Shown piece by piece: positions 17,459 to 33,314 of a stretch of 55,521 nt of DNA (position 1 is the first letter of the stretch; every line of letters starts with the position of its first letter). The notes beneath the pieces are model-generated. The model was not told where the DNA came from. It was given only the letters and a program-made list of their open reading frames with translations, and did not search any database. Location of the stretch: the sequence record SRR2962707_495; one strand, written 5' to 3'. Both the position numbers and the translations under genes were made by a program.

Positions 17459-18160
17459 ATGAGCGATATGCCCGGACGTCCCTCACGGCGCGGATTCTTA
17501 AAAGGATCTGTTGCAGGTGTGGCTTTAATGTCTGTGACTGCGTCATCAAAGGCGCAAAATAATCAAGATGATCTACCTCTTGATCAATATAAGCCGATAT
17601 ATCTCAATGCGGATGAGTGGGCCTTCGTCATGGCTGCTTGCGACCGGCTCATTCCTTCAACGGGAAATGGGCCTGGCGCACTCGATTGCCGCGTTCCGAT
17701 TTTTATCGACCAGCAATTGGCAGGCGAATTTGGCAAAGCCGAAACATGGTATATGGAAGGGCCTTATGCGCCCGATGCCGACCCCAAGCTTGGCTTCCAA
17801 AGCCCTTTCGGTCCTGCTGAAATTTATCGCCGCGCTATCCCGCTTTTCCAAGAATGGTGCCAAAACAATCAAGGCGATAGTTTTGAAGCGCTTGATGCAG
17901 CCAAGCAAGACTCAGCCCTTACAGCCCTACAAAAAGGCGATGTAAAACTACCTGCAGAGCTGCGCGATTTCTTCTCATTCTTACTTGCCAACACCAAAGA
18001 AGGCTATTTTGCTGATCCTCTATATGGCGGGAATTACCAGATGCAATCTTGGGTCTATATCGGATTTCCGGGCGCGCGCGGCGCTTATACGGAGTGGGTC
18101 GGACGCGAAAACGCAGAATATCCACTCGGACCAGTCGCACTGAGCGGAGAGAGGGCATAA
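17459..18160 (+). CDS. Gluconate 2-dehydrogenase small (gamma) subunit with Tat signal
   Basis: SRRGFLK twin-arginine signal, EGYFADPLYGGN and IGFPGAR. Confidence 0.9.
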   Translation: MSDMPGRPSRRGFLKGSVAGVALMSVTASSKAQNNQDDLPLDQYKPIYLNADEWAFVMAACDRLIPSTGNGPGALDCRVPIFIDQQLAGEFGKAETWYMEGPYAPDADPKLGFQSPFGPAEIYRRAIPLFQEWCQNNQGDSFEALDAAKQDSALTALQKGDVKLPAELRDFFSFLLANTKEGYFADPLYGGNYQMQSWVYIGFPGARGAYTEWVGRENAEYPLGPVALSGERA

Positions 18161-18162
18161 TC

Positions 18163-19935
18163 ATGGCAACAAGAACTGATCCGAAAAAAGACGTCGTTAT
18201 CATTGGGCTTGGTTGGACCGGCGCGATTATGGGCATGGAATTGGCGCAAGAAGGTCTTGAAATCCTAGCGCTGGAACGCGGTGAAGATCGCAATACGGTT
18301 CCCGATTTCCAATATCCAGATGCTTTCGACGAATTAAAATATGGCATTCGCTACGGCTTGATGCAGAAGCCATCAAAGTCAACGCTGACTATTCGCCGAA
18401 ATGAGCAAGAGACCGCATTGCCTTATCGCAATCTCGGCTCGTTTTTACCAGGCGACGGTGTTGGCGGCGCAGGTGTGCACTGGAACGGCCAAACCTGGCG
18501 TCCACAGGCTGTTGAATATCGATTGCGCAGCTATGTAGAAGAAACCTTTGGCGCTGACATTATCCCAGAAGGCATGCAATTGCAGGATTGGGGCGTGACA
18601 GCAGAAGAGCTAGAACCCTTCCACGCGAAGTTTGAACGCGTGGCCGGCATTTCCGGCAAAGCTGGCAATATTAACGGCGAAATCCAAGAGGGCGGCAACC
18701 CATTTGAAGCGCCGCGCTCAAGCGACTACCCAATGCCTCCATTGAAAAATACATGGGATTCAGAACTCTTTGCTGAAGCTGCCCGCAATATGGGCTATCA
18801 CCCGTTCCCGCGCCCATCAGCTAATGCAAGCACAGCCTATGTTAATGACTACGGCATGCAGATGGGTGCCTGTAATTATTGCGGCTTTTGCGAGCGCTAT
18901 GGCTGCAACAACTATTCTAAATCTTCCCCTCAGGTCTGTATTCTGGACGCGCTGAAACTGAAGCCTAACTTTAACTACAAGACGCGGTGTGAAGTCCTGA
19001 AAATAGAAAAGTCTGCTGATGGCAAAACTTCAACAGGCGTGACCTATTTTGACGAGCGGACAGGCGAAGAGGTTTTCCAGCCTGCTGATCTTGTTTTGGT
19101 CTGCGCTTATTCGCTGCACAATGTGCATTTGCTGCTTCTTTCAGAAATTGGCCAACCTTATGATCCGGCCACCGGCGAAGGTGTGGTTGGTCGCAATTAT
19201 GCCTACCAGATGACCGGCGGTACATCGATGTGGTTTAAGGACAAAACCTTTAACCCGTTTGTTGGTACAGGCTCAGCCGGTATGACAATTGACGATTTTT
19301 CAATGTCACAGATCGACTTTGGCAAAGAGGGCTTTATCGGCGGCAGCTACATTACCGGCGCCCATTCCGGTGGCCGCCCTATTCAACAAATGTCGCTTCC
19401 ACCTAAAACACCCGGCTGGGGCGAAGGTTGGAAGGAAGCCGTGGGTGAATGGTATGGACACAATATGTCTATTGGTTCGCACGGATCCAACATGGCTTAT
19501 CGCGACACCTATCTTGATCTTGATCCTGTCTATAAGGACCGCCATGGCCGTCCATTGATGCGCATGACCTTCGACTGGAAGGCCAACGACATTAAGATGA
19601 CGCAGTTTATGAAGACCAAGATCGAAGGCATCGCCACGAGCATGAAACCTGATGCGATGGCATCTGGCTATAAAGCAGAAGGTGCGGCCTACGATACGCG
19701 GCCATATCAGTCGACCCACAATGTTGGCGGCGCAATCATGGGCACCGATCCTAAAACCTCGGTGATCAACCGCTATTTGCAGAGCTGGGACTGTCACAAT
19801 GTTTGGGTGATGGGTGCTTCGGCATTTCCGCAAAACACACAATACAACCCAACGGGTCCATTGGGCGGTCTCGCCTACTGGGCGGCAGAAGCACTCCGCA
19901 AGGATTATCTGCCGAACCCAAGACCGTTGATGTAA
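18163..19935 (+). CDS. Gluconate 2-dehydrogenase flavoprotein subunit (GMC oxidoreductase)
   Basis: VIIGLGWTG FAD motif, GVGGAGVHWNG, CNYCGFC...GC cysteine cluster, YQSTHNVGG and YNPT. ATG at 18163. Confidence 0.9.
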   Translation: MATRTDPKKDVVIIGLGWTGAIMGMELAQEGLEILALERGEDRNTVPDFQYPDAFDELKYGIRYGLMQKPSKSTLTIRRNEQETALPYRNLGSFLPGDGVGGAGVHWNGQTWRPQAVEYRLRSYVEETFGADIIPEGMQLQDWGVTAEELEPFHAKFERVAGISGKAGNINGEIQEGGNPFEAPRSSDYPMPPLKNTWDSELFAEAARNMGYHPFPRPSANASTAYVNDYGMQMGACNYCGFCERYGCNNYSKSSPQVCILDALKLKPNFNYKTRCEVLKIEKSADGKTSTGVTYFDERTGEEVFQPADLVLVCAYSLHNVHLLLLSEIGQPYDPATGEGVVGRNYAYQMTGGTSMWFKDKTFNPFVGTGSAGMTIDDFSMSQIDFGKEGFIGGSYITGAHSGGRPIQQMSLPPKTPGWGEGWKEAVGEWYGHNMSIGSHGSNMAYRDTYLDLDPVYKDRHGRPLMRMTFDWKANDIKMTQFMKTKIEGIATSMKPDAMASGYKAEGAAYDTRPYQSTHNVGGAIMGTDPKTSVINRYLQSWDCHNVWVMGASAFPQNTQYNPTGPLGGLAYWAAEALRKDYLPNPRPLM

Positions 19936-19947
19936 GGGAAAGATGAT

Positions 19948-21282
19948 ATGAAAACCCTACTCCGCATTATTCTGGGCCTTATCGTTATTGGCCTTGTCGC
20001 GCTCGTCGCGATCATCTTTGTTCCACCGTCAGCGACACCGCCGAATGAAAATTTGGCTGCAGACTGGGCGCCAGCGCCCGGGCAAGGCGAATATGTAACA
20101 CGCATGGCCGATTGTGCAGCCTGTCACACAGCGCCTGACGGCAAGCCATTTGCAGGTGGCCGCGCCATTGATAGTCCGCTTGGCACTATTTGGTCGACCA
20201 ATATTACTGCTGATCCTAAAACCGGCATCGGCAATTGGACGCTCGATCAATTCCGCGCGTCTCTTGTTGATGGCGTAGCGCCCGGCGGTAAACATCTTTA
20301 TCCGGCCATGCCGTATGAAAACTACCGCAAGCTTTCAGAGCAAGATATCCGCTCTATCTTCAGCTACCTTAAAAATGACGTGGAACCTGTCGAATATAAA
20401 GCCGAGACAACTAATTTGGCTTTTCCATTCAATCAGCGTTGGGGCATTCGTGTTTGGAATTGGGCTGCACTGAGCAAAGCGGGCTTTAAACCAACCGACA
20501 AAGTTGCTGGCGATGATGTGCTCACGCGCGGTGCTTATCTCGTGCAAGGCCTTGGCCATTGTGCAGCTTGTCATAGCCCACGTAATACGATTATGGCGCA
20601 AGCAGGTACCAATGGCAGCGATGCTGCGTTTTTATCGGGCGGCGAGCTAGACGGATGGTCTGTGCCGGATTTACGCACGGCCCACGCCGCATTGCAGAAT
20701 TGGTCTGATGCAGATTTGAAAAGTTACTTGCTCACAGGTCGCAACAGCCATTCGGCTGTGGTTGGTGAAATGTCGCTCGTCGTCGAAGATTCGTTGCAAT
20801 ATATGACCGATGAGGACGCGGACGCGATGGTTGCCTATCTGCGCTCAATATCAGATGTCACCCCTACACCGTTACTTGCAGCGCCAGACGATCAATTGGT
20901 TGCTGACCGTGTTGCGGCGGCTGACGATGCCACAAGCACAAAACTTAAAGCGGCAGTTGATCTATCGCTGGGTGAGCGAGTCTACATGGACAATTGTAGC
21001 GCCTGTCACATGATTGATGGTAAGGGCGCATCTGGCGTGTTCCCATCGCTTGTTGGCAATTCTTTGGTTGTCGCTGACAAGACCAAAGGCCTAACGCATG
21101 TGATTTTGAACGGCGCTGAAATGCCTTCAACAAGCGAGCGGCCTTCGCGCTTGCGTATGCCAGCCTTCGATGAACGCCTATCCAACGAAGAACTGGCTGC
21201 ACTTGAGAGCTTCGTGCGCAGTGGCTGGGGCAACAATGCTTCATCGGTGACAGAAGATAATTTATTGGCAGATGAAAAATAA
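19948..21282 (+). CDS. Tri-heme cytochrome c subunit of the membrane-bound dehydrogenase
   Basis: Three CxxCH motifs (CAACH, CAACH, CSACH), an N-terminal TM helix and LYPAMPY. Confidence 0.92.
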   Translation: MKTLLRIILGLIVIGLVALVAIIFVPPSATPPNENLAADWAPAPGQGEYVTRMADCAACHTAPDGKPFAGGRAIDSPLGTIWSTNITADPKTGIGNWTLDQFRASLVDGVAPGGKHLYPAMPYENYRKLSEQDIRSIFSYLKNDVEPVEYKAETTNLAFPFNQRWGIRVWNWAALSKAGFKPTDKVAGDDVLTRGAYLVQGLGHCAACHSPRNTIMAQAGTNGSDAAFLSGGELDGWSVPDLRTAHAALQNWSDADLKSYLLTGRNSHSAVVGEMSLVVEDSLQYMTDEDADAMVAYLRSISDVTPTPLLAAPDDQLVADRVAAADDATSTKLKAAVDLSLGERVYMDNCSACHMIDGKGASGVFPSLVGNSLVVADKTKGLTHVILNGAEMPSTSERPSRLRMPAFDERLSNEELAALESFVRSGWGNNASSVTEDNLLADEK

Positions 21283-21284
21283 GC

Positions 21285-21325
21285 AAAAAAATTATGGGCC
21301 TAGCAATAGGCCCATAATGCTTTTC
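21285..21325. terminator. Bidirectional intrinsic terminator
   Basis: ATTATGGGCCTA-GCAA-TAGGCCCATAAT (21291-21318), with an A-run before and a T-run after, between convergent operons. Confidence 0.85.
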
Positions 21326-21343: not shown

Positions 21344-22057
21344 CTACAGCGTTTCAAACAGCAGCGATTGTAACTCTTGGTGATTCATCGCGATTTTATT
21401 GGCCCCTGCATTTCGCAAAACTGCGCCGTGACTATCTGTGTCAGAGGCAAGGTGAGAGCCACCTAAAAATCCAATACATTTCGTATGCGCGGCAGCTGCA
21501 GCTTTTACACCGGCCGTGGCATCTTCAACCACGATACATTGATCTATCGCCACGTCCATTTGCTCAGCGGCATATAGAAATAAATCTGGCGCTGGTTTGC
21601 CGCGCTTTACCATTTCTGCGCTAAATACATTCGTCGAAAAGCGCTCCGCCAGCCCAAGGCAATCAAGCGCGAATGCGATGCGATTGGGCGCACCGCCCGA
21701 ACCGATGCAATAAGGAACCTTGGCTTCATCGAGCAGATCGAGCGTTTTATCAACACCTGAAACCGGCTTTAACTCTTTGGCAAAGCGTGTGAAAAGGCGC
21801 TGATGCCAAACATCGGGAAAATCTTCACCGCAGATTTCGCCTGTCTCTTTTGTTAAAAAATCCATATGCGCGCGTGTCGACGCACCAAGAAAAAGTGTGC
21901 ACGCGCGCTCATAATCAATATCAGCGCCGCGCACCACCATTTCAGCGACCAGCTCTTCGATCGCGATGCGCTCGCTGTCAGCAATCACACCGTCAAAATC
22001 GAAGATCACAAGGCCAGGTGCCACCTTACCGATGGCACCTTTTTTATCACTCACCAT
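21344..22057 (-). CDS. HAD-superfamily phosphatase (class IA)
   Basis: IFDFDGVIADSE, GKPAPDLF and VVEDA. Overlaps the end of the ALDH gene. Confidence 0.88.
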   Translation of the reverse strand: MVSDKKGAIGKVAPGLVIFDFDGVIADSERIAIEELVAEMVVRGADIDYERACTLFLGASTRAHMDFLTKETGEICGEDFPDVWHQRLFTRFAKELKPVSGVDKTLDLLDEAKVPYCIGSGGAPNRIAFALDCLGLAERFSTNVFSAEMVKRGKPAPDLFLYAAEQMDVAIDQCIVVEDATAGVKAAAAAHTKCIGFLGGSHLASDTDSHGAVLRNAGANKIAMNHQELQSLLFETL

Positions 22058-24431
22058 AAGGCAACCAAATCGTTTTGATTTGCGTCGCACGGCGCAAGAA
22101 TTCACGGCCCTGACCAAGCGTATCGTCAAGCCAATCGCGCTCAAACCCGCCATCGGTCCAGACAGCTTTCAGATTGCCCGTCGAGCCTTCTTCGACCATC
22201 TTGATGCTTTCCTGATTGCCGCAATACCAAAGGGCCGCAACTTCATCATGCTCGGCGAGCGTTTTGGCAAGCACATCGCGTTCGCCTGTGATCAAGTTGA
22301 TCACGCCGCCCGGCACATCAGATGTTTCCAAAACCTGATAGAGTTTCGATGCCAAAAGTGGATGCGCCTGCGATGCTATAACGACAGTCCGGTTACCCAT
22401 CGCCACAGCTGGCAAGATAAGAGACATCATCGACAACAATGGCATTTCGTCTGGACACACGATGCCCATAACGCCCCAAGCTTCTGGCATGGCTAGTGTC
22501 ACATGCTTTGATTTTGTTGCATGAACAGCGCCGTCAAATTTGTCAGCTTGCGCCGCATAATAGAAGCAGCGGCGAATTGTCTGTTCGACTTCTGACGCGG
22601 CAGACTTTGCTGATGCGCCGGTGCTGGCGATCAAAAGATCCGTCAATTCAGCGCGGCGCTGCGCCATATTTTCAGCCACGTAATACAACACCTGCGCACG
22701 GTTATGGGCTGTTACCCCTGACCATCCGCCCGCTTTAGCAGCCGCTTCAACGGCATTTCTAATGTCTTTGCGGTTACCTAGTGCAGCCTGCCCGATGACA
22801 CCGGACTTGCCCATCACATTGTAGCTTTGGCCGCAATCAGCGCGCGCCTGCTTGCCGCCAATATACATCTTGGCCGTGATGTCGATTTCGGGGCGGTCGC
22901 TTTTGCCCAAATGAGGTTCGACGCTTACATCAATTGATTTTGCAGCGCGTGCTTTTCCTTTTTTAGAAGGTGTCGCAACGAGGTATTCATAGAGGCCTTC
23001 ACGCGCACCTTCGCGGCCATATCCGCTCTCACGGTAACCACCAAAGGCGGCGCCAGCGTCAAACAGATTGGTCGCGTTAATCCACACGATACCCGCTTTC
23101 ACTTTAGCGCTGATTTCGATGGCACGGTCGATGTTCTGGCTCCAAATTGAAGCTGAAAGACCGTAGCGGCTATGATTTGCAATATCGAGCGCTTCTGACG
23201 GCGTTCTAAATGTCATCATGCTGGCGACAGGGCCAAAAATTTCCGTTTCATTGACCGTATGAGCTGGCTCTGTGCCTGTGAAAAATGCTGGTGCACAGAA
23301 GCTGCCTTTTTGCGGCAATGTCGCTTTTGACTGGTGCAAAACTGCGCCTTCTTCTTCGCCCTTTTTAACAAGCGCATTGATGCGGCTTAACTGTGTTTGG
23401 GACACGACTGCACCAACATCCATGGTTTTGTCTAAAGGATCGCCGATGCGTAGTTTTTGCAAGCGGGTATCTAGTTTTGCATAAAACAGGTCAGCAATAC
23501 CTTCTTGCACGAGAACGCGGGTTCCAGCGCAGCAGACTTCACCTTGGTTAAACCATACGGCATCAACCACGCCTTCAACGGCGGCGTCTAAATCAGCATC
23601 TTCAAAAACGATGAACGGTGATTTGCCGCCAAGTTCAAGCGACAGCTTTTTGCCAGACCCAGCAGTTTGCTTGCGGATCATACGGCCAACAGCCGTTGAC
23701 CCTGTAAAGGCAACCTTATCAACATCGCTGTGGCCTGTAATCATAGAGCCGGTTTCACCGTCTCCATGCACCAGATTAACAACACCTGCAGGCAGGCCAA
23801 TGTCCACGCAAATTTCGGCAAAAGCTTGTGCTGTCAGCGGTGTTAAATCGGCAGGCTTTAACACGACGGTGTTACCGGCTGCCAAAGCGGGTGCAATTTT
23901 CCAAGCCAGCATCAGCAATGGAAAGTTCCACGGGATCACTTGCCCGCAAACACCCACGGCCTGAAAACCAGGATATTCACTTTCTAGCAAATCAGCCCAG
24001 CCTGCGTGGTGATAGAAATGACGCGCAGCGAGAGGAATATCTATATCGCGGGTTTCGCGAATGGTTTTGCCATTGTCCATCGTTTCCAAAACAGACAGGA
24101 AGCGTTCGCGTTTTTGGATATGGCGCGCAATCGCATAAAGATATTTAGCGCGCTCATAGCCGGGCAAAGCAGACCATTTAGGAAAGGCTGCGCGCGCTGC
24201 GGCAACCGCTGCATCCACATCATCCTCAGTGCCCTTTGCCAACTTGGCAATCACGCTGTCATTTGCAGGATTGAGCACATCGCTCATTGGGCCAGATGGG
24301 GCAACAAATTTACCGTTAATGAAGTGGCCAATGCCGCCATCATGATTTTTCAACCAAGTTTTGACTTCAGCATTGCTTTCGGGAGCTGGACCATATTCCA
24401 TTGTTTCCATAATTTCCTTGATAGAAGGCAT
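22047..24431 (-). CDS. Extended aldehyde dehydrogenase (ALDH16-type, 794 aa, extra C-terminal Rossmann-like domain)
   Basis: IPWNFP, FTGST, LELGGKSP, FNQGEVCCAG (catalytic Cys) and EIFGP, followed by a second partial ALDH NAD-binding domain. Confidence 0.9.
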   Translation of the reverse strand: MPSIKEIMETMEYGPAPESNAEVKTWLKNHDGGIGHFINGKFVAPSGPMSDVLNPANDSVIAKLAKGTEDDVDAAVAAARAAFPKWSALPGYERAKYLYAIARHIQKRERFLSVLETMDNGKTIRETRDIDIPLAARHFYHHAGWADLLESEYPGFQAVGVCGQVIPWNFPLLMLAWKIAPALAAGNTVVLKPADLTPLTAQAFAEICVDIGLPAGVVNLVHGDGETGSMITGHSDVDKVAFTGSTAVGRMIRKQTAGSGKKLSLELGGKSPFIVFEDADLDAAVEGVVDAVWFNQGEVCCAGTRVLVQEGIADLFYAKLDTRLQKLRIGDPLDKTMDVGAVVSQTQLSRINALVKKGEEEGAVLHQSKATLPQKGSFCAPAFFTGTEPAHTVNETEIFGPVASMMTFRTPSEALDIANHSRYGLSASIWSQNIDRAIEISAKVKAGIVWINATNLFDAGAAFGGYRESGYGREGAREGLYEYLVATPSKKGKARAAKSIDVSVEPHLGKSDRPEIDITAKMYIGGKQARADCGQSYNVMGKSGVIGQAALGNRKDIRNAVEAAAKAGGWSGVTAHNRAQVLYYVAENMAQRRAELTDLLIASTGASAKSAASEVEQTIRRCFYYAAQADKFDGAVHATKSKHVTLAMPEAWGVMGIVCPDEMPLLSMMSLILPAVAMGNRTVVIASQAHPLLASKLYQVLETSDVPGGVINLITGERDVLAKTLAEHDEVAALWYCGNQESIKMVEEGSTGNLKAVWTDGGFERDWLDDTLGQGREFLRRATQIKTIWLPYGE

Positions 24432-24440
24432 GTTTCGTCC

Positions 24441-25394
24441 TCAAGCCATAGCGTGGCGGTTAGAAGCCGAGTAACGGCCCGTAATGTGATGTTCAAGTTG
24501 GCGCTCAATATCGCCTAAAAGCGAACTCGCACCGATGCGGAAAAGGTCATTTTCAAGCCAGCGTGTTCCCAGCTCTTCTTTCATCATGACCTGCCAAGCG
24601 ATGGCGTTTTTCGCCGTCGAAATACCGCCAGCTGGTTTAAAGCCAACAATCTGACCTGTTTGATCACGGAAATCGCGCAGCGCACGCACCATTGTAATCG
24701 ATACTGGAAGCGTGGCGTTGACGCTTTCTTTGCCTGTCGAGGTTTTGATAAAATCAGCCCCAGCCTGCATAGCAATCATGGATGCCTTATAGACATTTGT
24801 GAGTGTCTGCAGATCGCCGGTCGCCAAAATCGCTTTAAGATGTGCATCACCGCACGCTTCACGCATGGCGCTAATCTCATCATAAAGCGCTTGCCAATTG
24901 CCGGTTAGAACGTGTTCGCGGGTAATGACGATATCAATCTCGCGCGCGCCTTGTTCAACCGCATAGCGGATCTCTGCAAGACGTGTTGGCAATGGCGTTA
25001 GGCCCGCTGGAAAACCTGTCGCGACAGAGGCAACAGGAATATTGCTGCCCTCAAGCGCTTTGACCGCATGGCCTACCATCGTTGGATAGACGCAGACGGC
25101 ACCGGTGGTAATGCCTTCCACGCCCAATGCTTCCAATATGTCTTCACGCACAGGACGGCGCGCTTTCGCGCATAATCTGTTTACGCGGCCCGCAGTATCA
25201 TCGCCGGCCAATGTTGTTAGGTCGATGCAGGTGATGGCTTTTAAAAGCCAAGCGGCTTGCCATTCCTTTTTGACAGAGCGGCGACCACCAAGTGAATCGG
25301 CTCTGCGCTGCGTGGCGCTTAGATTGACGATTTTGCCGTCAATCGCTTCAGGCGTAAAAGCTGTGCCTGTCATTCGGGGAAAGTCATGTGTCAT
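24441..25394 (-). CDS. deoC: Deoxyribose-phosphate aldolase, long form
   Basis: WLLKAITCIDLTTLAGDDT, GAREIDIVI, GADFIKTSTGK, GFKPAGGI and FRIGASSLL. Confidence 0.93.
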   Translation of the reverse strand: MTHDFPRMTGTAFTPEAIDGKIVNLSATQRRADSLGGRRSVKKEWQAAWLLKAITCIDLTTLAGDDTAGRVNRLCAKARRPVREDILEALGVEGITTGAVCVYPTMVGHAVKALEGSNIPVASVATGFPAGLTPLPTRLAEIRYAVEQGAREIDIVITREHVLTGNWQALYDEISAMREACGDAHLKAILATGDLQTLTNVYKASMIAMQAGADFIKTSTGKESVNATLPVSITMVRALRDFRDQTGQIVGFKPAGGISTAKNAIAWQVMMKEELGTRWLENDLFRIGASSLLGDIERQLEHHITGRYSASNRHAMA

Positions 25395-25415
25395 CGCATA
25401 AATGTCCTTTGTCTG

Positions 25416-26417
25416 TCACCCGCGCCCGCGGCGAATGTCAATAAAGCGATTTAGAAGGATCGCCGCAATAATAATAATGCCAGTCACGGTCATCTGATAG
25501 AAAGAGCCAAGCCCCAGCAAATTGAAAATGTTGCGCAATACCTGAAGCAACATAACAGCGAATGCGGTTCCCAAAATGCTGCCACGTCCGCCAAATAGCG
25601 ACGTACCACCAAGAACAACAGCAGCAATGGCGTCAAGTTCAAGGCCTTGGCCAGCTGTTGGTTGGCCAATGCGCAAACGCGAAGTAAGCAGCAAACCGGC
25701 CAAAGCGCTCATGACACCTGATACGGCAAACACAGCAACAATGATGCGGCGTGTTGGAATGCCAGAAAGGCGTGCGGCTTCTGGATTGCCGCCGGTGGCA
25801 TAGATGCTTTCACCAAAGACTGTCTTGCTGAGCAAGAGGCCTGCAAGCACGCATAATATGGTGAAGATCAAACCCATTGAACTTATCTGAAAGCCCGGGA
25901 AAATTGGCACCATGGTTGACGAGAATGCAGCAAATGCAGTTGGCAGACCTGAAACAGGTACGCCTTCCGTGGTCAAATAAGTTAGGCCGCGAAAGGAGAC
26001 CAAACCCGCAAGTGTAACGATAAAGCTTGGCACCTGCGCATAGGCACTCAATGAGCCCATAAATGCACCGCAAATACCGCCTGCACAAATCGTCAGCAGA
26101 ATTGCGAAGATGATCGGCATGCCGCTCGCCAATAAAATAGCGGCAATCATACCGCAGAGTGCAACGACACTGCCAACTGACAGGTCAATATTGCCGGTCA
26201 AAATAACAAATGTCATGCCAATGGCGACAATGCCAACCACGGCCGCTTGCTGGAAAAGATTTGAAATGTTGGTTGCTGTCAAAAAGTTTTCAGACAATGA
26301 CGAGGCGACCAAAACGACAAATAGAAAGATAGCAATAAAGTTATATTCTATTACGAGGTCGAGCAGACGCCGCGCCAGTGACGGCGTGCCGTCCAGTTCA
26401 TTTGTAATGTCAGCCAT
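25416..26417 (-). CDS. Monosaccharide ABC permease (RbsC-like)
   Basis: GMTFVILTGNIDLSVGS, GGNPEAARLSGI and ELDAIAAVVLGGTSLFGGRG. Confidence 0.92.
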   Translation of the reverse strand: MADITNELDGTPSLARRLLDLVIEYNFIAIFLFVVLVASSLSENFLTATNISNLFQQAAVVGIVAIGMTFVILTGNIDLSVGSVVALCGMIAAILLASGMPIIFAILLTICAGGICGAFMGSLSAYAQVPSFIVTLAGLVSFRGLTYLTTEGVPVSGLPTAFAAFSSTMVPIFPGFQISSMGLIFTILCVLAGLLLSKTVFGESIYATGGNPEAARLSGIPTRRIIVAVFAVSGVMSALAGLLLTSRLRIGQPTAGQGLELDAIAAVVLGGTSLFGGRGSILGTAFAVMLLQVLRNIFNLLGLGSFYQMTVTGIIIIAAILLNRFIDIRRGRG

Positions 26418-27951
26418 CTATCGCTACTCCCGAATATTCGCCAAGTATCTGGCATTTTAAAATTGTGTCCTGATCTGTTTCAGATGGATTGTACTGGGCG
26501 ATGTTGCGCCCTTCGTGGAACACCCAAATTGAATCACAGGCTGCATAAAGTTCTTCAAGTTCAGAGGACGCGACGATGATGGCAGCGCCATCACGCGCCA
26601 ATCCATCGACCAAATTATAGAGATCGGCTTTTGCGCTAATGTCGAGACCGCGTGAAGGCTCATCGAGCAGCAGTAATTGCGACCCTTTGATAATCCACTT
26701 GGCCAAAACGACCTTCTGCTGATTGCCGCCAGAGAGCTGCACGACATTTTGTTCTGGTCGGCCATATTTTGTCGCCAATTGATCAAGCACTGGTACAGCG
26801 CGTTTTTTCTGCAGGCCATGACGTGCCCAGAACTTACCCTGCATCGAAGGCAAAGTCGCATTCTTATAAATCGGAGACTGAAGGATCAGGCCCTTTGTTT
26901 TGCGGTCTTCCGGCACCAAGCCGAAACCATTTTGGATCGCATCGCGCGGGCTTTTCGGCGCATAGGTTTTGCCGTCCAGCGTCATCTCTGCTTCATGGGT
27001 GCGCGCACCAAACAAAGACATGAGGAACGACGTGCGCCCTGATCCGTTAAGGCCAGTTAATCCTATAATTTCGCCGCGTCGCAATTTAAAATCTTGAATA
27101 TCAAGACCTTGCGCGCCGCGCAAACGCTTAATATCAAGAACCACGTCTCCAGTGACAGGTGCGCGATCCTTGCGCTCAATTAGCTGGCGGTCTTTGCCCA
27201 TAATCGCTTCAACCAAAGCGCTATCGGGCGTTCCTTCAACATCAAAAGTTTCAATCGTGCGCCCGCCGCGCAATACGGTTACGCGATCACCAATTTCTCG
27301 CAATTCACCAAGACGGTGGCTCACATAAACAATGGCCACACCTTGGGACGTAAGTTCGCGGATAACTTCAAAAACGGACTCTAGCTCTTTTTCATTTAGA
27401 GCCGCAGAAGGCTCATCCATGATGATAATCTTGGCTTCACGCGTCAAAGAACGCGCAATTGCCGTCAGTTGCTGGTTAGCGATTGAGAGGCTGCCGACCT
27501 TAACATCTGGACCAAAGCTCGCGCCGACACGTTTCAGCGCTTTTTCTGCTTCAAGGCGGCGCTTTTTCGCATTCAAAATACCATTTTTGCTGGGCGGATG
27601 ACCCAAAAATAAATTTTGCGCCACGGTCAATTGCGGCACCAGATCAAGTTCCTGATAGATCATCGAAATGCCAGCCTCAGTCGCTTCTGACGGCGTGCGG
27701 AACTTCATCAACTTGCCTTCGACGCGAATTTCGCCGGAGGTCGGCATCATGGCACCGGCAACGAGTTTTAAGAATGTCGATTTACCCGCACCATTGGCGC
27801 CCAAAAGGCAATGTACTTCGCCCTTGCGCACATCAATGCCAGCATCTGCAAGCGCAACAACATTGGGCGGAAAACGCTTTGAGATGTGACGGATCGAAAG
27901 CACATTTTGCTCCTGATCGACAGTTTCTTTTGTTTGCATAGCGACTGTCAT
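26410..27951 (-). CDS. Monosaccharide ABC ATPase with tandem domains (RbsA-like)
   Basis: GANGAGKST, MDEPS, LSGGNQQKV and LLDEPSRG. Confidence 0.93.
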   Translation of the reverse strand: MTVAMQTKETVDQEQNVLSIRHISKRFPPNVVALADAGIDVRKGEVHCLLGANGAGKSTFLKLVAGAMMPTSGEIRVEGKLMKFRTPSEATEAGISMIYQELDLVPQLTVAQNLFLGHPPSKNGILNAKKRRLEAEKALKRVGASFGPDVKVGSLSIANQQLTAIARSLTREAKIIIMDEPSAALNEKELESVFEVIRELTSQGVAIVYVSHRLGELREIGDRVTVLRGGRTIETFDVEGTPDSALVEAIMGKDRQLIERKDRAPVTGDVVLDIKRLRGAQGLDIQDFKLRRGEIIGLTGLNGSGRTSFLMSLFGARTHEAEMTLDGKTYAPKSPRDAIQNGFGLVPEDRKTKGLILQSPIYKNATLPSMQGKFWARHGLQKKRAVPVLDQLATKYGRPEQNVVQLSGGNQQKVVLAKWIIKGSQLLLLDEPSRGLDISAKADLYNLVDGLARDGAAIIVASSELEELYAACDSIWVFHEGRNIAQYNPSETDQDTILKCQILGEYSGVAIDG

Positions 27952-28931
27952 GAAGCCTCCATTAGAATTTCTGCGGTTGCTTCATCGGTTACAAGAACCG
28001 AGATATAACCGGCTCTCAATGCGGCCAAGGCAATCATGTGTTTTTCAGCACCCGAAACAACGCCAATTGCGCGCTCTTTTTTACGCAATTGATCGAGCTT
28101 TAAGCCTACGGTGCGATCGTCAAGCGCGGTGTCTACAATTTCGCCATTTGCATCGACGAAGCGGCCCAGAATGTCGCCGACAGCGCCCGCTTCTCTTAGC
28201 CGCTTTGTGTCTTCAGGATTAAGATAGCCGGAACTGAGCAGAACAGAATCATCCGACAGTCCGCCCATACCAAAACAAATAACCGATGCTTTTTTCGCAA
28301 GGTCGAGAACGCGCTCAACAATGGGATCTTTTTCCAGCGCAACACGCGTCGAGCGCTTGCCAACAATGGCTGGAACTGGAAGCAATGTTGCCGTTCCGCC
28401 TGCCGATTGCGCAAATTCTTCTGCCACAGCTGATGTGCGTGCTGACGTTTGCTGCAATGCTGTCGCGCCGTTGACGAGCACAATATTGGTGCCTGGGTTC
28501 CACCCTAACGGTAAAGCGCGTGCAACGGCAGACATTGTGCGTCCCCAGCTAACACCAATGAGCGGTGACTTGGGATTTAAATTTACAATGTAATTGGCAG
28601 CAGCAGAAGCAACGGCATCAGTCATCAACGAAAGGTCTGTGATTTGCCCCATCGGCACCACGATCGCGTCCGACAGATTAAACTTCTTTTGAAGGGCAAC
28701 TTCGAAGCTGGTTTTGCGGTTCGAGCGGGGGATGATCTCAATCTTTACCACGCCCTCAGCCTTTGCCTCTGAAAGAAGCTTGCTGATCTGCCAGCGTGTC
28801 AGACCCAATTCTTTGGCAATTTCGGCTTGGGTGCGCTCTAAATCATAATAGAGTTTTGCGACCTGAACCATTAAATGCTCTCGGTTTTGATCGACGGGCA
28901 AACGTGAATTGTAAGGATTGCGCGGGCTCAT
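27948..28931 (-). CDS. SorC/DeoR-family sugar-binding transcriptional regulator
   Basis: VAKLYY...TQAEIAKELGLTR HTH, GVSWGRTM, GAVGDILGRF and LVTDE. ATGA overlap with the kinase stop. Confidence 0.92.
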   Translation of the reverse strand: MSPRNPYNSRLPVDQNREHLMVQVAKLYYDLERTQAEIAKELGLTRWQISKLLSEAKAEGVVKIEIIPRSNRKTSFEVALQKKFNLSDAIVVPMGQITDLSLMTDAVASAAANYIVNLNPKSPLIGVSWGRTMSAVARALPLGWNPGTNIVLVNGATALQQTSARTSAVAEEFAQSAGGTATLLPVPAIVGKRSTRVALEKDPIVERVLDLAKKASVICFGMGGLSDDSVLLSSGYLNPEDTKRLREAGAVGDILGRFVDANGEIVDTALDDRTVGLKLDQLRKKERAIGVVSGAEKHMIALAALRAGYISVLVTDEATAEILMEAS

Positions 28932-30445
28932 GATGCGCCTCCTGATTGGACCTTCGCCAAGTGGTGCATAACTGGTGTCAGCGCCTCTGTTGCCTCGCAA
29001 TATAGAGAAAGTGATTGATTATACCAATCGGTGCGTTCGCGGTTGGGCAGGATTTCCCGTGTCGGCGCGGCACAATGTTTGGCAGCATCTTTGATGTTAT
29101 CAAATAGACCAAGCGCTGTAGCTCCGCAGACCGATGCGCCGATAAGCGAAAGATTATCTTGCTCGGCGATGAGTACGGGGCGGCCAATGGCATCGACTGT
29201 GGCCTGCATCCAAGCGCGGTTTTTAACAATGCCGCCAGCCATCACAACGCGGTCAATTTCAACGCCGCGTTCAGCCAGCACCCGTAAAATATTGGCAGAG
29301 CCAAGGGCAACAGAATCGACACAGGCCGCATAAAGATCAGCGCGGTTGTGGCCAAGGGTTAGCCCCGTTAATGTGCCGCGCAATGCGCCATCGCGAAACG
29401 GCGTGCGGTTTCCCATCCAAAAATCGAGTGCCAATAGACCTTCCGCTCTTGAAGGTGTCGCAGCAACTTCTGCGATCAAATCTGCATGGCCTTTTTCATC
29501 AAGGCCGAAGATTGCGTGGGCGAGCCAATTTAAAATTGAACCAGCGGAAACCTGGCCGCATTCAACAAGCCAATCGCCATCACTTAGGGCGTTGGGATAT
29601 GGACCCCAAAAGCCTGACACGTCACGCTCTTCTGCAAGCTGTGTGAGTTGAACAACCGATGTGCCGCCGATGAACAACATGCCACCGGGCGATACAACAT
29701 CTGCACCCAACATGCCGATATGCGCATCAATGCCGCCCTGTGCGACCAGCGGTCGATTTTCCAAACCAAGGTCTGATGCCATTTCAGCAGACATCTGTCC
29801 GATAGCGCCGCCAACGGGAATAACTTCCTGCGGTAGACGATCTATAAGGTCTGAAATCCCAAGCTCATCATATAACTCGGGCACAAAGCGATCAGCGCCG
29901 CTATCATAGTTCCATTTGCAGGCAGCGTTCATGCGTGAAGCGACCCAGCGACCCGTCAGGTCAAAATTGACATAGTCTAGCGCTTCGCAAATGATTTCGG
30001 CTTCTTGCCAGATGTCTGGCTGATTGCGCTTTAGCCACATGGATTTGGGTATGAGCCATTCGACAGCGTCTGAGCCACCGCAAAAGCGCATCACATCATT
30101 TTTAAGATTTGCAGTCTCGCGGCTTTCAGCTTCAGCGCGGCAGTCCATCCACAAAAGCGCAGGACGGATTGGCGTTCCATCCAATTTGCACACAGCAACG
30201 GTTGAAGCCGTTGTGGCTGCACAGACAGCATCAATATGTTTCAAACCAGCAGCTTCGATTGCAGCACGGCCGGCTTTCCTAAGAGCCGCACGCCACTGAA
30301 GCGGATCCTGCTCTGCCCAACCGGCGCGCGGATAGCTTGTATCGTATTTGGCTTCAGACTGGGCGATCATTGATCGGGCTTCAAGGTCAAATACCCCTGC
30401 CCGAACACCGCCTGTGCCGAAATCAAAACTCAATAAATGCGTCAC
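28928..30445 (-). CDS. FGGY-family carbohydrate kinase (ribulokinase-like)
   Basis: DFGTGGVRA, WAEQDP, LWMDCRA, GGIDAH, GNRTP and AGG motifs. GTG start after GGAGAG. Confidence 0.9.
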   Translation of the reverse strand: MTHLLSFDFGTGGVRAGVFDLEARSMIAQSEAKYDTSYPRAGWAEQDPLQWRAALRKAGRAAIEAAGLKHIDAVCAATTASTVAVCKLDGTPIRPALLWMDCRAEAESRETANLKNDVMRFCGGSDAVEWLIPKSMWLKRNQPDIWQEAEIICEALDYVNFDLTGRWVASRMNAACKWNYDSGADRFVPELYDELGISDLIDRLPQEVIPVGGAIGQMSAEMASDLGLENRPLVAQGGIDAHIGMLGADVVSPGGMLFIGGTSVVQLTQLAEERDVSGFWGPYPNALSDGDWLVECGQVSAGSILNWLAHAIFGLDEKGHADLIAEVAATPSRAEGLLALDFWMGNRTPFRDGALRGTLTGLTLGHNRADLYAACVDSVALGSANILRVLAERGVEIDRVVMAGGIVKNRAWMQATVDAIGRPVLIAEQDNLSLIGASVCGATALGLFDNIKDAAKHCAAPTREILPNRERTDWYNQSLSLYCEATEALTPVMHHLAKVQSGGAS

Positions 30446-30478
30446 TAGGACACTCCTCCCCGGGCTCAGTTCATCTAT

Positions 30479-31501
30479 TTATGGACGAAACATGATTTTG
30501 GAGAAGAACAGATCCTTGTCATTTTGCAAGGAGGCAAACATATCTGGCAGTTCTTCGAGGGTTAGTTCATGCGTAATCATGAAGTCCCAGCGCAATTTGC
30601 CGGTTGCCAAAGCATCAAGTGTCACTGTCCATTGTGGGCCAGGATATGGCGCACCAAAAGAATTCCATGAACCATGCAGCGAGACTTCCTGACGCAAGAA
30701 ATGCTGGAATGTTTTATTATCGAGCGACACATCGCCGACCGGAATACCGATGAACACGACATGGCCACCTGGTGCGGCTAGACTTACGGCGCTATTAATC
30801 GATGAAGGATGGCCGGCGGCTTCCACAGTAATATCTGACAACAAGTCAGAAGGAATTTCTTGTCCTGCAAGAAAACAATGGGCTGCACCGGCTTCGCGCG
30901 CTTGTTCTAGTTTTTTCTCGGAAACATCAACGGCCACGACTTCGCGTGCGCCCATTGATAGCATCCATTGAATAGCAAATAGGCCAATTGGACCGCAGCC
31001 GATAACGGCGCCACGTGATCCAGCCTTTACTCCGCCTGCCTTCCAGATTGAATGGAGTGCAATTGATGCAGGGTCAACCATCGCGGCAGCGCGTGGGTCT
31101 GTGCCTTCAGGAACCTTCATCAGGTTTGACGTTGGTACAACAACCCATTCAGCATAGGCGCCATCACGGCGTGAACCGAAATAATCATAATCGCGGCAGC
31201 GCGAGAAATTACCTGTCGCACATTGGTCGCATTTTCCGCATGGCAGCATTGGTGGGACTGTGCACAATTCGCCTTTTTTAAAGCCTTCAACGCCTTCACC
31301 AAGTTCATCAATGCGACCACAAAATTCATGGCCACAGATAATTGGCATTTTATGTGCGCCCTTAATGAGCATGCGCGGCAAGTCTGAACCACATACGCCA
31401 ACCGCATCTACCCGCAATAAAACTTCGCCAGCACCTGGTGTTGGTTTTGCTACATCTTCGAGACGAATGTCGCCGGGTTTATACATGACAGCTGCGCGCA
31501 T
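30479..31501 (-). CDS. Zn-dependent polyol(-phosphate) dehydrogenase (galactitol-1-P 5-dehydrogenase-like)
   Basis: GVCGSD, GHEF, CGKCDQC...C structural Zn site, GCGPIG and GSWNS. Confidence 0.88.
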   Translation of the reverse strand: MRAAVMYKPGDIRLEDVAKPTPGAGEVLLRVDAVGVCGSDLPRMLIKGAHKMPIICGHEFCGRIDELGEGVEGFKKGELCTVPPMLPCGKCDQCATGNFSRCRDYDYFGSRRDGAYAEWVVVPTSNLMKVPEGTDPRAAAMVDPASIALHSIWKAGGVKAGSRGAVIGCGPIGLFAIQWMLSMGAREVVAVDVSEKKLEQAREAGAAHCFLAGQEIPSDLLSDITVEAAGHPSSINSAVSLAAPGGHVVFIGIPVGDVSLDNKTFQHFLRQEVSLHGSWNSFGAPYPGPQWTVTLDALATGKLRWDFMITHELTLEELPDMFASLQNDKDLFFSKIMFRP

Positions 31502-31558
31502 AGTTGCACCTTGTTTGTTTAATAGAATTTCAGATTAGGAATTTTTAGAAGAAAGATA

Positions 31559-31584
31559 GGCCGAGCGAAGTTTTCCGCCCGGCC
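31559..31584 (-). terminator. Intercistronic stem-loop after the binding-protein gene (partial terminator or mRNA stabiliser)
   Basis: Minus strand GGCCGGGCGGA-AAAC-TTCGCTCGGCC, an 11-bp stem with two G-U pairs, followed by a T-rich tract. Confidence 0.6.
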
Positions 31585-31594
31585 CATTGGGAGG

Positions 31595-32581
31595 TTACTT
31601 AGATAGAACTTCCGGACGGTATTCTGCGAACAGACCTTCGCGTGGGAATTCATTAACATTGTCAGCTGTAACCGCTTTTGAACCAGCATCTACGAAAGAA
31701 GGAACTTCTTTGCCTGCCGCTGCTTCACGCGCAACCTGAATGGTAACATCACCCAAATATTTTGGATCGTTGAGCGCAGTAGCAACATAGTTGCCGCCAT
31801 TTGCCATCATTTCAAGCGCTTCTGAAAGGCCGTCAACACCAGAGATAAGAACATCGCCGCGTCCGCTTTCAGCTAGAACCTGCGCTGCACCCAAAGCCAT
31901 ATCGTCATTGTGTGCATAGATCACTTTAACATCTGGATGGGCCTGAAGTAGATCCTGCATCGCTGTGATCGCATTTGCGCGGATATATTCGGCATATGGG
32001 CCTTCAATGATCTCATGGCCTGTGCCTTCGATTGCAGCATGGAAGCCATCACGGCGATCCATCATAACAGCTCCGCCAGCATCACCCTGAATTTCGATGA
32101 TTTTAGCGTTTTCAATGCCATCAGCTTTAAGACGGGCAACGACAGCGTCGCCAACCATTTTGCCCATAGCTTTGTTGTCGCGGCCAATATGCGCCACAAC
32201 TTTACCGCCATTAACTGAACGGTCGACTGTGATCACCGGAATACCGGCAGCCGCAGCGGCTTCAACTGATGGGATAACCGCATCAGGGTTTACAGGATTG
32301 ATAATGATGGCGTTGACGCCCTGTGTGATCAAATCCTGAATATCATTATTTTGCTTGGATACATCACCATTGGCATCAAGGAAGATCAATGTATCACCGC
32401 CAGCTTTAGCGGCAGCTTCCGCACCGTCTTTCAACTGAACGTAAAAAGGTGATTGAAGTGTAACTTGGCTAAAACCGATTTTTAGACCGTCAGCAAGACT
32501 CGGTGTCACGGCGGCAAAGCCGAGCGCAAGCGCAGATACAGTAACGGCAAAACGTTTCATAGCGGAACGACGAGTAATCAT
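31595..32581 (-). CDS. Monosaccharide/polyol ABC substrate-binding protein (RbsB-like)
   Basis: Signal peptide, IPVITVDR, AHNDDMALGA and GVDG. GGAGGAG RBS before ATG 32581. Confidence 0.92.
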   Translation of the reverse strand: MITRRSAMKRFAVTVSALALGFAAVTPSLADGLKIGFSQVTLQSPFYVQLKDGAEAAAKAGGDTLIFLDANGDVSKQNNDIQDLITQGVNAIIINPVNPDAVIPSVEAAAAAGIPVITVDRSVNGGKVVAHIGRDNKAMGKMVGDAVVARLKADGIENAKIIEIQGDAGGAVMMDRRDGFHAAIEGTGHEIIEGPYAEYIRANAITAMQDLLQAHPDVKVIYAHNDDMALGAAQVLAESGRGDVLISGVDGLSEALEMMANGGNYVATALNDPKYLGDVTIQVAREAAAGKEVPSFVDAGSKAVTADNVNEFPREGLFAEYRPEVLSK

Positions 32582-32626
32582 AGTGTCTCCTCCCAGAGTG
32601 TAAAATTGGATAAGTTCGTAAACCAG

Positions 32627-32651
32627 CATTTGTGATATAATGACACAAATG
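32627..32651. promoter_or_regulatory. Candidate operator for the SorC/DeoR regulator
   Basis: Perfect 8-bp inverted repeat CATTTGTG-N9-CACAAATG, about 45 nt upstream of the first gene of the operon. Confidence 0.6.
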
Positions 32652-33314
32652 TTACATTAAGCAAAGCCACCAGCGATAATTTGTCAATAGCATTTTGGAA
32701 ATCCAATTTACTTTCAGCTCAAGCCATTGATTTATAACATTAATTATTCGAGCTAATTTTCGACAGCTTTGAAAGCGCGGCCAGACCGATTATTTTCGCG
32801 GCGCAAAGCGATTCATAAATTTTCACGCATGTGATTTTTTAGATGATAATTCTGACCGCAATTAGATCACGCGTATTGCGGTGTCACGGTAGATTAGTGG
32901 CGCCTAATCAATGTGCGGGATTTGGGACAGTCACATGTAGGGCAATAAATCTGCCTCACCCAAACGAGTTCAATACGCTTTGTATATATAGAGAGTGGCA
33001 TCAGACCAAATAGTTGATGGACCAGCTCTCACAAATATAATGATGATTAACTTGCAAAATCTGAGATCATCACCGGGTTTTGCAAATTACTGACACCTAC
33101 CCCTTGACAAAATTATACCCGTTGAACGGCTTTATGCTATTCAGGGCCAAATCTTAGACAAATTCTCTAAAATTTCACTTTGTACAGACCAAACAGTCTA
33201 TTCTTTATCTTACCTCGACTGTCCGAGTACCTTCGATTGACTCCGAGACGAAATGTCGCAATCATTCTTGGTGCATCAAAAAGAAACAGATAGCCCAAAC
33301 AAGAGGGGAATAAC

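Follow-up and report, generated by a model that had tools for sequence, protein, structure and literature searches.

In this work, we analyzed a run of nine genes on the minus strand of sequence record SRR2962707_495 (a stretch of 55,521 nucleotides, hereafter the window), which reads from position 32581 to 21344 and encodes, in this order, a periplasmic solute-binding protein (SBP), a Zn-dependent dehydrogenase, an FGGY-family kinase, a SorC-family regulator, the ATPase and the permease of an ATP-binding cassette (ABC) importer, a deoxyribose-phosphate aldolase (DERA or DeoC), an ALDH16-type aldehyde dehydrogenase and a HAD-family hydrolase. The operon is conserved and uncharacterised. The gene families, their synteny, their co-occurrence and the swapping of modules were observed directly, and they show that DeoC-ALDH16 is an independent and far commoner two-gene module, to which a rarer upper module with importer, kinase and dehydrogenase has been added in the window. 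The most solid new facts are (i) the near-universal pairing of DERA with ALDH16 and (ii) the modular exchange of upper routes on this pair. That the upper module of the window is one more route towards the aldolase is a plausible interpretation, which is weighed below against other readings.

The independence of the DeoC-ALDH16 pair is best seen from the ALDH16 side. When the C-terminal ALDH16 domain was used as query against a sample of 401 Pseudomonadota genomes, 59 genomes gave matches at E <= 1e-20; a true ALDH16 is present in 36 of these, Ahrensia kielensis included (at least 46% identity, frames of about 780-870 amino acids), and the remainder are ordinary aldehyde dehydrogenases with 25-31% identity. 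A long DeoC gene lies directly upstream of 34 of the other 35 ALDH16 genes, the single miss starting at a contig end, and these 35 loci contain neither the Zn dehydrogenase (0/35) nor the kinase (0/35), and SorC only once. The neighbours of the stand-alone pairs are heterogeneous, the 68 upstream open reading frames (ORFs) including two of the Metalloenzyme family, one purine nucleoside phosphorylase (PNP), two DeoR and one SorC. In agreement with this, no dehydrogenase orthologue was detected in 400 other Alphaproteobacteria sampled (0/400), 34 of which carry ALDH16. Some of the neighbours point to deoxynucleoside or deoxyribose breakdown: a PNP gene precedes DeoC-ALDH16 in one genome, and in Agrobacterium sp. 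AGB01 a ribokinase-family kinase (TIGR02152, 335.7 bits, cut-off 299.65) precedes the unlinked DeoC-ALDH16. The annotation of the Agrobacterium plasmid pAspH13-3a lists a DeoR/GlpR regulator followed by a binding protein, an ABC ATPase, two permeases, an aldose 1-epimerase, a ribokinase, deoC and a 798-aa aldehyde dehydrogenase, which by analogy appears to be a complete kinase/aldolase deoxyribose route of the kind described in the available part of PMC6365646.

Seen from the kinase, the two modules are closely associated. A kinase-seeded scan of species genomes gave 74 loci, of which the 69 with a kinase of at least 45% identity were counted and five distant ones (L065, L069 and L072-L074; 25-37%) were set aside. 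SorC is present in 69/69 kinase loci, the Zn dehydrogenase lies upstream of the kinase in 63 of the 64 loci that reach far enough to be informative, and 55 of 61 informative loci have DeoC and ALDH16 in line on the downstream side; among the eight uninformative ones, the start of DeoC is seen before the contig end in four. The pair is absent in line from L002, L015, L016, L038, L050 and L063, and four of the five genomes of this group that were checked carry DeoC-ALDH16 elsewhere. Two architectures were found, one with the ABC genes inside the operon (43 loci) and a compact one consisting of dehydrogenase, kinase, SorC, DeoC and ALDH16. No further conserved gene family was found in the kinase loci and, therefore, the set includes no isomerase, epimerase or second kinase. 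The dehydrogenase-kinase pair occurs in Rhizobiaceae, Phyllobacteriaceae, Brucellaceae, Aurantimonadaceae and Rhodobacterales. Separately, alphaproteobacterial-type clusters were also seen on contigs binned into a Halovenus (archaeal) and a Thiobacillus metagenome-assembled genome (L042 and L055), for which mis-binning is likelier than transfer, at least in the case of the 3-kb Halovenus contig.

In an unbiased sample, drawn from the same GTDB family and consisting of 300 genomes, the association looks weaker than in the kinase-seeded loci. The Zn dehydrogenase was detected in 15/300 genomes and ALDH16 in 163/301; ALDH16 is present in 14 of the 15 dehydrogenase-bearing genomes versus 149 of the 286 others (one-sided Fisher p = 0.001). 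Nine of the 15 have ALDH16 on the contig of the dehydrogenase at a distance of no more than 10 kb, five have it elsewhere, and in one it was not found. The co-conservation of kinase and dehydrogenase with DeoC-ALDH16, on which the single pathway proposed in the initial annotation depended, is thus upheld from the kinase side, both in the kinase loci and in the family genomes, but does not hold from the ALDH16 side, where neither enzyme accompanies the pair.

The exchange of upper modules became apparent in phylogenetic trees. FastTree was run with 89 ALDH16 proteins, rows shorter than 700 amino acids being left out, and local support values are given. All 54 cluster-linked ALDH16 copies, plus that of L105, where SorC alone accompanies the pair, form one clade (support 100) which spans Rhizobiaceae, Phyllobacteriaceae, Brucellaceae, Aurantimonadaceae, Paracoccaceae and Roseobacteraceae. 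A second tree of 109 rows included 20 extra ALDH16 loci, namely those of the best-scoring 18 of the 149 family genomes with ALDH16 but no dehydrogenase, and two plasmid loci. Among these 20, seven have the PfkB-type layout, two are SorC-DeoC-ALDH16 and one is a transketolase/xylulokinase variant; with L105, SorC-DeoC-ALDH16 without kinase or dehydrogenase is thus found in three loci (L105, L162 and L164). Six of the seven PfkB-type rows nest in the clade with the window architecture. The smallest starred set containing the window comprises 35 window-type, 6 PfkB-type and 3 other rows (support 99), and, going by the starred branches, the window-type label and the PfkB-type label must each have changed three times or more. 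Taken at face value, upper modules have been exchanged several times on one lower module, as would be expected if they were alternative routes feeding one shared intermediate. Agrobacterium sp. AGB01 holds both upper modules and one DeoC-ALDH16 only, joined to the PfkB type; since it keeps both, they are probably non-redundant and serve different substrates.

Some features of the additional loci deserve mention on their own. Long-form DeoC (about 320-340 amino acids) directly precedes ALDH16 in all 20 extra loci too (surveyed among L105-L139 and L154-L171). The loci L152/L153 (pAspH13-3a), L154-L156, L158, L160 and L169 share an LsrB-like binding protein, ABC genes, aldose 1-epimerase, ribokinase, deoC and ALDH16, and the gene of their DeoR/GlpR regulator is divergently oriented; these PfkB-type operons look like complete operons for deoxyribose uptake and catabolism, and their binding protein is automatically annotated as autoinducer-2 binding. 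In L157 (1632-11090), transketolase, a xylulokinase exceeding the XylB cut-off, a SorC/DeoR-like regulator and an RbsB-like binding protein accompany DeoC and ALDH16.

The sequences of the lower module are those of well-defined families. The window DeoC scores above the cut-off of the deoC equivalog TIGR00126 (155.8 versus 117.3 bits), and its alignment to E. coli DERA (1JCL, 154 bits) brings D154, K217 and K253 to the catalytic positions, which are D102, K167 (the Schiff-base lysine) and K201 in E. coli numbering; all available sequence tests identify it as a DERA. Residues 3-793 of the aldehyde dehydrogenase align with residues 3-766 of the Loktanella ALDH16 (PDB 6MVR, 859 bits) and has the ALDH16 domain plan (cd07111), that is, an ALDH catalytic domain and a C-terminal pseudo-ALDH domain of about 290 amino acids. 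Its N169, E266 and C300 correspond to the catalytic Asn, Glu and Cys, given as Asn165, Glu261 and Cys295 of 6MVR in the available part of PMC12041015, and it is of the active type. As far as the available parts of PMC12041015 and PMC8160307 go, the only activity described for bacterial ALDH16 is towards medium-chain aldehydes, hexanal for example, and no physiological role is given. The HAD protein passes only the generic HAD-IA subfamily model TIGR01509, all specific NCBIfam models staying below their cut-offs, and a HAD gene follows ALDH16 in 15/55 loci, as a variable accessory gene.

The genomic context of this DeoC is also informative. Jiella pelagia and Nitratireductor indicus possess the phosphopentomutase gene deoB, and the DeoC of the cluster is their sole DeoC. 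These sole-DeoC genomes, together with the ribokinase and PNP neighbours and the Agrobacterium operon, suggest that DeoC-ALDH16 is a genuine 2-deoxyribose 5-phosphate (dR5P) module. The window belongs to a marine, Ahrensia-like bacterium; A. kielensis DSM 5890 is its closest relative among the species genomes, with the same nine genes in the same order (67-95% protein identity), and it carries deoB, a second, short DeoC and ribokinase-like genes, all outside the cluster. The lack of deoA, deoB, deoD and a PfkB kinase, as stated in the initial annotation, is correct for the operon and the 39 window ORFs scanned, where none of them was found, but it does not extend to the rest of the genome in A. 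kielensis.

The proteins of the upper module are related to known families without reaching any specific assignment. The SBP matches Peripla_BP_4 (200 bits) and the RbsB model (200.6 bits, cut-off 337), and its listed homologues measure 320-340 amino acids, mostly 324-331. Its structure was predicted with a 42-row alignment (pLDDT 86.5, compared with 43 for the single-sequence prediction), and the predicted fold matches ribose-binding proteins. It is 59% identical to PDB 4YV7 (Mycobacterium smegmatis MSMEI_3018), a structure of which no mention was found in the full-text literature searched and which may hold glycerol as its only ligand. MSMEI_3018 may correspond to MSMEG_3095; on this mapping, M. 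smegmatis may have a similar cluster. According to the available part of the transcriptome study PMC12027616, MSMEG_3091-3095 encode a sugar ABC transporter and a sugar-binding regulator, followed by an oxidoreductase flanked by two FGGY kinases. The ABC ATPase matches AraG, XylG and RbsA-like models, all below their cut-offs.

With 62-95% identity, the Zn dehydrogenase is better conserved than any other enzyme of the cluster. Its best NCBIfam model is the galactitol-1-phosphate 5-dehydrogenase GatD (NF007642, 249.6 bits, not reaching the cut-off of 550) and its best PDB match is E. coli GatD (4A2C, 215 bits), and we classify it on these scores as GatD-like, the equivalog score excluding a GatD orthologue. 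Residues C37, H58, E59, C88, C91, C94, D143, G168-G173 (GxGxxG) and D192 are invariant in 63/63 orthologues, and the catalytic Zn ligands, structural-Zn cysteines and GxGxxG motif of medium-chain dehydrogenases are all present. D192 lies at the end of the second Rossmann strand, where an Asp confers a preference for NAD+, and its invariance fits with NAD+ use and an oxidative direction. Residue 143 is an Asp within a D-P-A-S motif in 63/63 orthologues; in GatD and sorbitol dehydrogenases the corresponding motif is presumably E-P, its Glu serving at the zinc site. The FGGY kinase comes closest to the models for ribulokinase (263.8 of the 428 bits required) and XylB (234.9 of 380 bits), and it passes no cut-off for a defined specificity, those for LsrK and glycerol kinase included; its best PDB match is 3GG4 (186 bits), and an ESM Atlas search with the kinase returned generic FGGY clusters only. 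Among characterised proteins, the Zn enzyme is closest to GatD, sorbitol and xylitol dehydrogenases, and the kinase to ribulo- or xylulokinases.

Taken together, these results can be accommodated in a model in which the nine genes would form a SorC-repressed catabolic operon with an upper and a lower part. DERA converts dR5P into glyceraldehyde 3-phosphate and acetaldehyde; in the lower part it would carry out this cleavage and ALDH16 would oxidise the acetaldehyde to acetate, the HAD protein being an optional phosphatase. The upper part, with its RbsB-like ABC importer, FGGY kinase and NAD+-type GatD-like Zn dehydrogenase, would constitute an alternative entry route, parallel to the PfkB (deoxy)ribokinase entry that is joined to the same lower module in Agrobacterium: a pentose-like alcohol would be imported and phosphorylated, and the phospho-alcohol would then be oxidised to a DERA substrate. 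Because a kinase and an alcohol dehydrogenase would have to suffice without an isomerase, few compounds could reach dR5P. In the simplest case, 2-deoxy-D-erythro-pentitol would be phosphorylated at C5 and the resulting 5-phosphate oxidised at C1 to dR5P, a scheme favored by analogy with GatD-like enzymes, which act on polyol phosphates. In this model we infer the substrate, the order of kinase and dehydrogenase, the aldehyde used by ALDH16 and the effector of the regulator. From the sequence evidence, that the upper module feeds the DERA step seems to us a real possibility, falling just short of probable. If it does so, a 2-deoxy-pentitol as its substrate is only a guess, with the chances leaning clearly against it. 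The joint proposal, in which the FGGY kinase and a Zn alditol-phosphate dehydrogenase yielding an aldose phosphate would make up an undescribed entry from 2-deoxy-D-erythro-pentitol to dR5P, and ALDH16 would be a dedicated DERA partner across Proteobacteria, is in our opinion unlikely to be right in all its parts.

A number of observations weigh against a feeding role of the upper module. The linkage arose once and was then inherited or moved as a block; the linked ALDH16 copies being a single clade, the 55 linked loci are therefore not independent evidence. The background of ALDH16 in the family is high (54%), which makes the co-occurrence test only moderately strong, and Aureimonas sp. Leaf454 has the dehydrogenase with no ALDH16 match and only a short DeoC. 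In Sinorhizobium meliloti 1021, pSymB carries SBP, ABC genes, dehydrogenase, kinase and SorC (the last three at 66, 51 and 50%, respectively) but no adjoining DeoC-ALDH16, its DeoC-ALDH16 being several hundred kb off on the same replicon, behind a DeoR-family gene. In Rhizobium leguminosarum BIHB 1148 (pSK01, L149), dehydrogenase (75%) and kinase stand at the end of a polyol-type operon without SorC or DeoC, whose other genes encode a second FGGY kinase, two short-chain dehydrogenases/reductases (SDRs) and a glycerol dehydrogenase. In addition, the nearest characterised relatives of the dehydrogenase oxidise secondary alcohols, and the deoxy-pentitol scheme needs a primary one; an FGGY kinase and a Zn polyol dehydrogenase are the classical pentitol pair, which ends in pentulose 5-phosphate and needs no aldolase; and 2-deoxyribitol was not found as a nutrient in the full-text literature searched, where it is mentioned only incidentally. 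As a side observation, a GatD-like dehydrogenase and kinase are found beside a second polyol-type operon in L045 (1730-8738), and the polyol-type operons of L149 and L045 contain a binding protein, an ABC transporter, an XylB-like FGGY kinase, one or more SDRs and a glycerol dehydrogenase.

Several of these facts would be accounted for by ordinary pentitol or hexitol catabolism, a serious alternative and the main rival, though on the whole we doubt it. The importer would take up ribitol, xylitol, arabitol or similar, the kinase and the GatD-like dehydrogenase, acting in either order, would lead to pentulose 5-phosphate or fructose 6-phosphate, and DeoC-ALDH16 would be biochemically separate and carried along with a shared SorC/DeoR-like regulator. 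It agrees with the dehydrogenase-kinase pairs of S. meliloti and R. leguminosarum, which lack a linked DeoC and are part of, or next to, polyol-type operons, and also with the nearest characterised relatives of both enzymes and the single origin of the linkage; moreover, the three loci in which SorC alone accompanies DeoC-ALDH16 indicate that the regulator may belong to the lower module. However, the linkage has been kept even where kinase identity has fallen to about 50%, in several families, and despite the insertion of the ABC genes between SorC and DeoC, and ALDH16 has been retained in nearly all dehydrogenase-bearing genomes of the family sample. Furthermore, the upper module sits exactly where Agrobacterium has its module for deoxyribose uptake and phosphorylation, and why the promoter of a pentitol operon should also serve genes for an aldolase and an aldehyde dehydrogenase would go unexplained.

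Another alternative is a direct deoxyribose route, in which 2-deoxy-D-ribose itself would be imported and the FGGY protein would be a new kind of deoxyribokinase, the Zn dehydrogenase being accessory and perhaps interconverting deoxyribose and deoxyribitol or handling a side product. The RbsB-like SBP with its ribose-binding-protein fold is in line with this possibility, and so is the regulator, whose best model is the Bacillus-type DeoR; the dehydrogenase aside, all steps of the kinase/aldolase route, as the available part of PMC6365646 describes it, are present. An accessory role is nevertheless hard to reconcile with the dehydrogenase being the most conserved enzyme of the cluster and present in all but one of the informative loci, and AGB01, which keeps the window-type module and a PfkB-type deoxyribose operon, speaks against redundancy of the two. 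To our knowledge, the substrates of FGGY kinases are ketoses, polyols and acids, and do not include aldopyranoses. We therefore consider this route improbable. The parts also resemble those of the lsr operon, with weak matches to the LsrK, LsrR, LsrA and LsrC models, and they could be imagined to process a small diketone or hydroxy-ketone signal, a relative of autoinducer-2, by import, FGGY phosphorylation, a redox step and cleavage by a DeoC-family enzyme. The equivalog scores are far below the cut-offs, though (LsrK, 125.5 versus 528 bits; LsrR, 139.5 versus 486 bits), the aldolase is by sequence a true DERA orthologue, which excludes LsrF, and no LsrG-like gene is found among the window families, so that signal processing of this kind is hardly credible. 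A feeding role of the upper module remains the reading that we prefer.

Regarding regulation, the SorC protein contains a Sugar-bind domain (213 bits), and its best NCBIfam model is the Bacillus-type DeoR (NF053881, 256.9 bits, below the cut-off of 420), with LsrR at 139.5 bits. A TGTG-N8-11-CACA palindrome is present upstream of the first gene in 19/64 related loci, compared with a mean of about 1 (maximum 4) in shuffles and with 5/630 random segments of the same loci, which supports the palindrome as a candidate operator. No informative match to the motif was found upstream of the unlinked DeoC genes or in the S. meliloti and R. leguminosarum loci. In the feeding model, the regulator would probably bind the TGTG-N9-CACA operator and sense a sugar phosphate.

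The layout of the operon, derived from the ORF list and profile searches, is given in Table 1. It confirms the description in the initial annotation of nine genes on one strand, at the same coordinates, separated by short gaps or overlaps (-11 to +93 nt): with the likely starts, the distances from SBP to HAD are 93, 33, -4, -4, -8, 21, 9 and -11 nt. All nine family names assigned there were likewise recovered by Pfam and NCBIfam profile searches, the ALDH16 type by the full-length alignment to 6MVR, and both the candidate operator and a terminal terminator, a strong hairpin with a T-run, were found again. From their spacing, the nine genes are predicted to be co-transcribed. The sigma-70 promoter scan gave no convincing match for the operon. 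The hairpin 3' of the SBP gene is possibly an attenuator or an RNA stabiliser that would raise SBP expression. No near-identical DNA was found in plasmids.

Table 1 Genes and candidate regulatory elements of the operon (positions in the window)
Feature	Coordinates	Strand	Basis or remark
Periplasmic solute-binding protein (SBP) of a CUT2 ABC importer, RbsB-like, 328 aa from likely start	31595..32581	-	ORF open to 32629; Peripla_BP_4
Zn-dependent medium-chain dehydrogenase, GatD-like, predicted NAD+-preferring	30479..31501	-	ADH_N + ADH_zinc_N domains
FGGY-family carbohydrate kinase	28928..30445	-	FGGY_N + FGGY_C domains
SorC-family regulator	27948..28931	-	ORF open to 29000; likely start overlaps kinase stop as ATGA
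ABC ATPase, two fused ATP-binding domains, CUT2 type	26410..27951	-	two ABC_tran stretches
ABC permease, RbsC-like	25416..26417	-	BPD_transp_2
Long-form deoxyribose-phosphate aldolase (DERA/DeoC), 317 aa	24441..25394	-	TIGR00126
ALDH16-type aldehyde dehydrogenase, 794 aa, catalytic ALDH domain + C-terminal pseudo-ALDH domain	22047..24431	-	alignment to PDB 6MVR
HAD-IA hydrolase, beta-phosphoglucomutase subfamily	21344..22153	-	Hydrolase + HAD_2 domains; start 22153 or 22057
Candidate SorC operator, palindrome CATTTGTG-N9-CACAAATG	32627..32651	-	46 nt upstream of likely SBP start
Strong hairpin, 14 pairs, directly 3' of SBP gene	31556..31587	-	hairpin scan
Terminator-like bidirectional hairpin, 12 pairs, T-runs on both strands; common to the operon and the convergent cytochrome c gene	21291..21318		

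As for the surroundings, the genes convergent on the operon (17459-21282, plus strand) encode a Gluconate_2-dh3 small subunit, a GMC flavoprotein and a cytochrome c, a trio that has the layout of membrane-bound sugar or polyol dehydrogenases. On the other side, about 660 bp of AT-richer non-coding DNA (32652-33314) separate the operon from a divergent universal-stress-protein gene; the 32-34 kb bin has a GC content of 0.456, compared with about 0.50 in most window bins, and a second inverted repeat of 28 nt is located in this non-coding region, about 300 nt upstream of the SBP start.

Two deoxyribose routes are known from the available part of PMC6365646, a kinase/aldolase route (deoK-deoC) and an oxidative one. 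If the upper module does deliver a DERA substrate, it would represent a third way into deoxyribose catabolism, and a function would be gained for a kinase-dehydrogenase pair now automatically annotated as "galactitol-1-phosphate dehydrogenase" and "sugar kinase". The adjacency of DeoC suggests DERA as the physiological partner of the ALDH16 family; human ALDH16 is a pseudoenzyme form associated with gout. The pairing would give the family a testable physiological role and tie it to deoxynucleoside breakdown. The full-text literature searches, whose coverage left the primary ALDH16 and S. meliloti transportome papers outside, yielded no description of the cluster or of an ALDH16-DERA pairing, and none linking S. 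meliloti pSymB to deoxyribose; the initial annotation, to which no described pathway with this enzyme set was known, agrees with them.

Comparison with known systems places the operon among several partial relatives. The gat system was rejected on the GatD cut-off. No characterised relative of the Zn enzyme scores higher than E. coli GatD (4A2C), and the Zn ligands are conserved; in the galactitol route of E. coli the substrate phosphate comes from the phosphotransferase system, whereas the window encodes a kinase, and D143 replaces what we take to be a Glu in GatD. The Loktanella ALDH16 (6MVR) is homologous to the window enzyme over the full length, both having the catalytic Asn, Glu and Cys as well as the additional C-terminal domain; the window gene differs in being tied to a DERA by synteny. 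The enterobacterial lsr operon is alike by family in its RbsB-like SBP, CUT2 ABC genes, FGGY kinase, SorC regulator and DeoC/LacD-family enzyme, but the window adds a Zn dehydrogenase and ALDH16 and does without LsrG; the lsr system was rejected, all Lsr cut-offs being missed and the aldolase being classified as DERA. In Bacillus subtilis, DeoR, a member of the SorC family, represses dra-nupC-pdp with deoxyribose 5-phosphate as effector; both it and, probably, the window regulator control a DERA gene, although the latter scores below the equivalog cut-off. The deo/deoK system as such was rejected, with no PfkB kinase, DeoA, DeoB or DeoD in the operon or the other window ORFs scanned. The deoK-deoC route and the pAspH13-3a operon share with the window the logic of importer, kinase and aldolase, with DERA followed by an aldehyde dehydrogenase; in contrast to them, the window has an FGGY instead of a PfkB kinase, no mutarotase, an extra GatD-like Zn dehydrogenase, and SorC in place of DeoR/GlpR. 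Of the systems compared, the kinase/aldolase deoxyribose route would by analogy be the closest in function, the operon differing from it in its front end.

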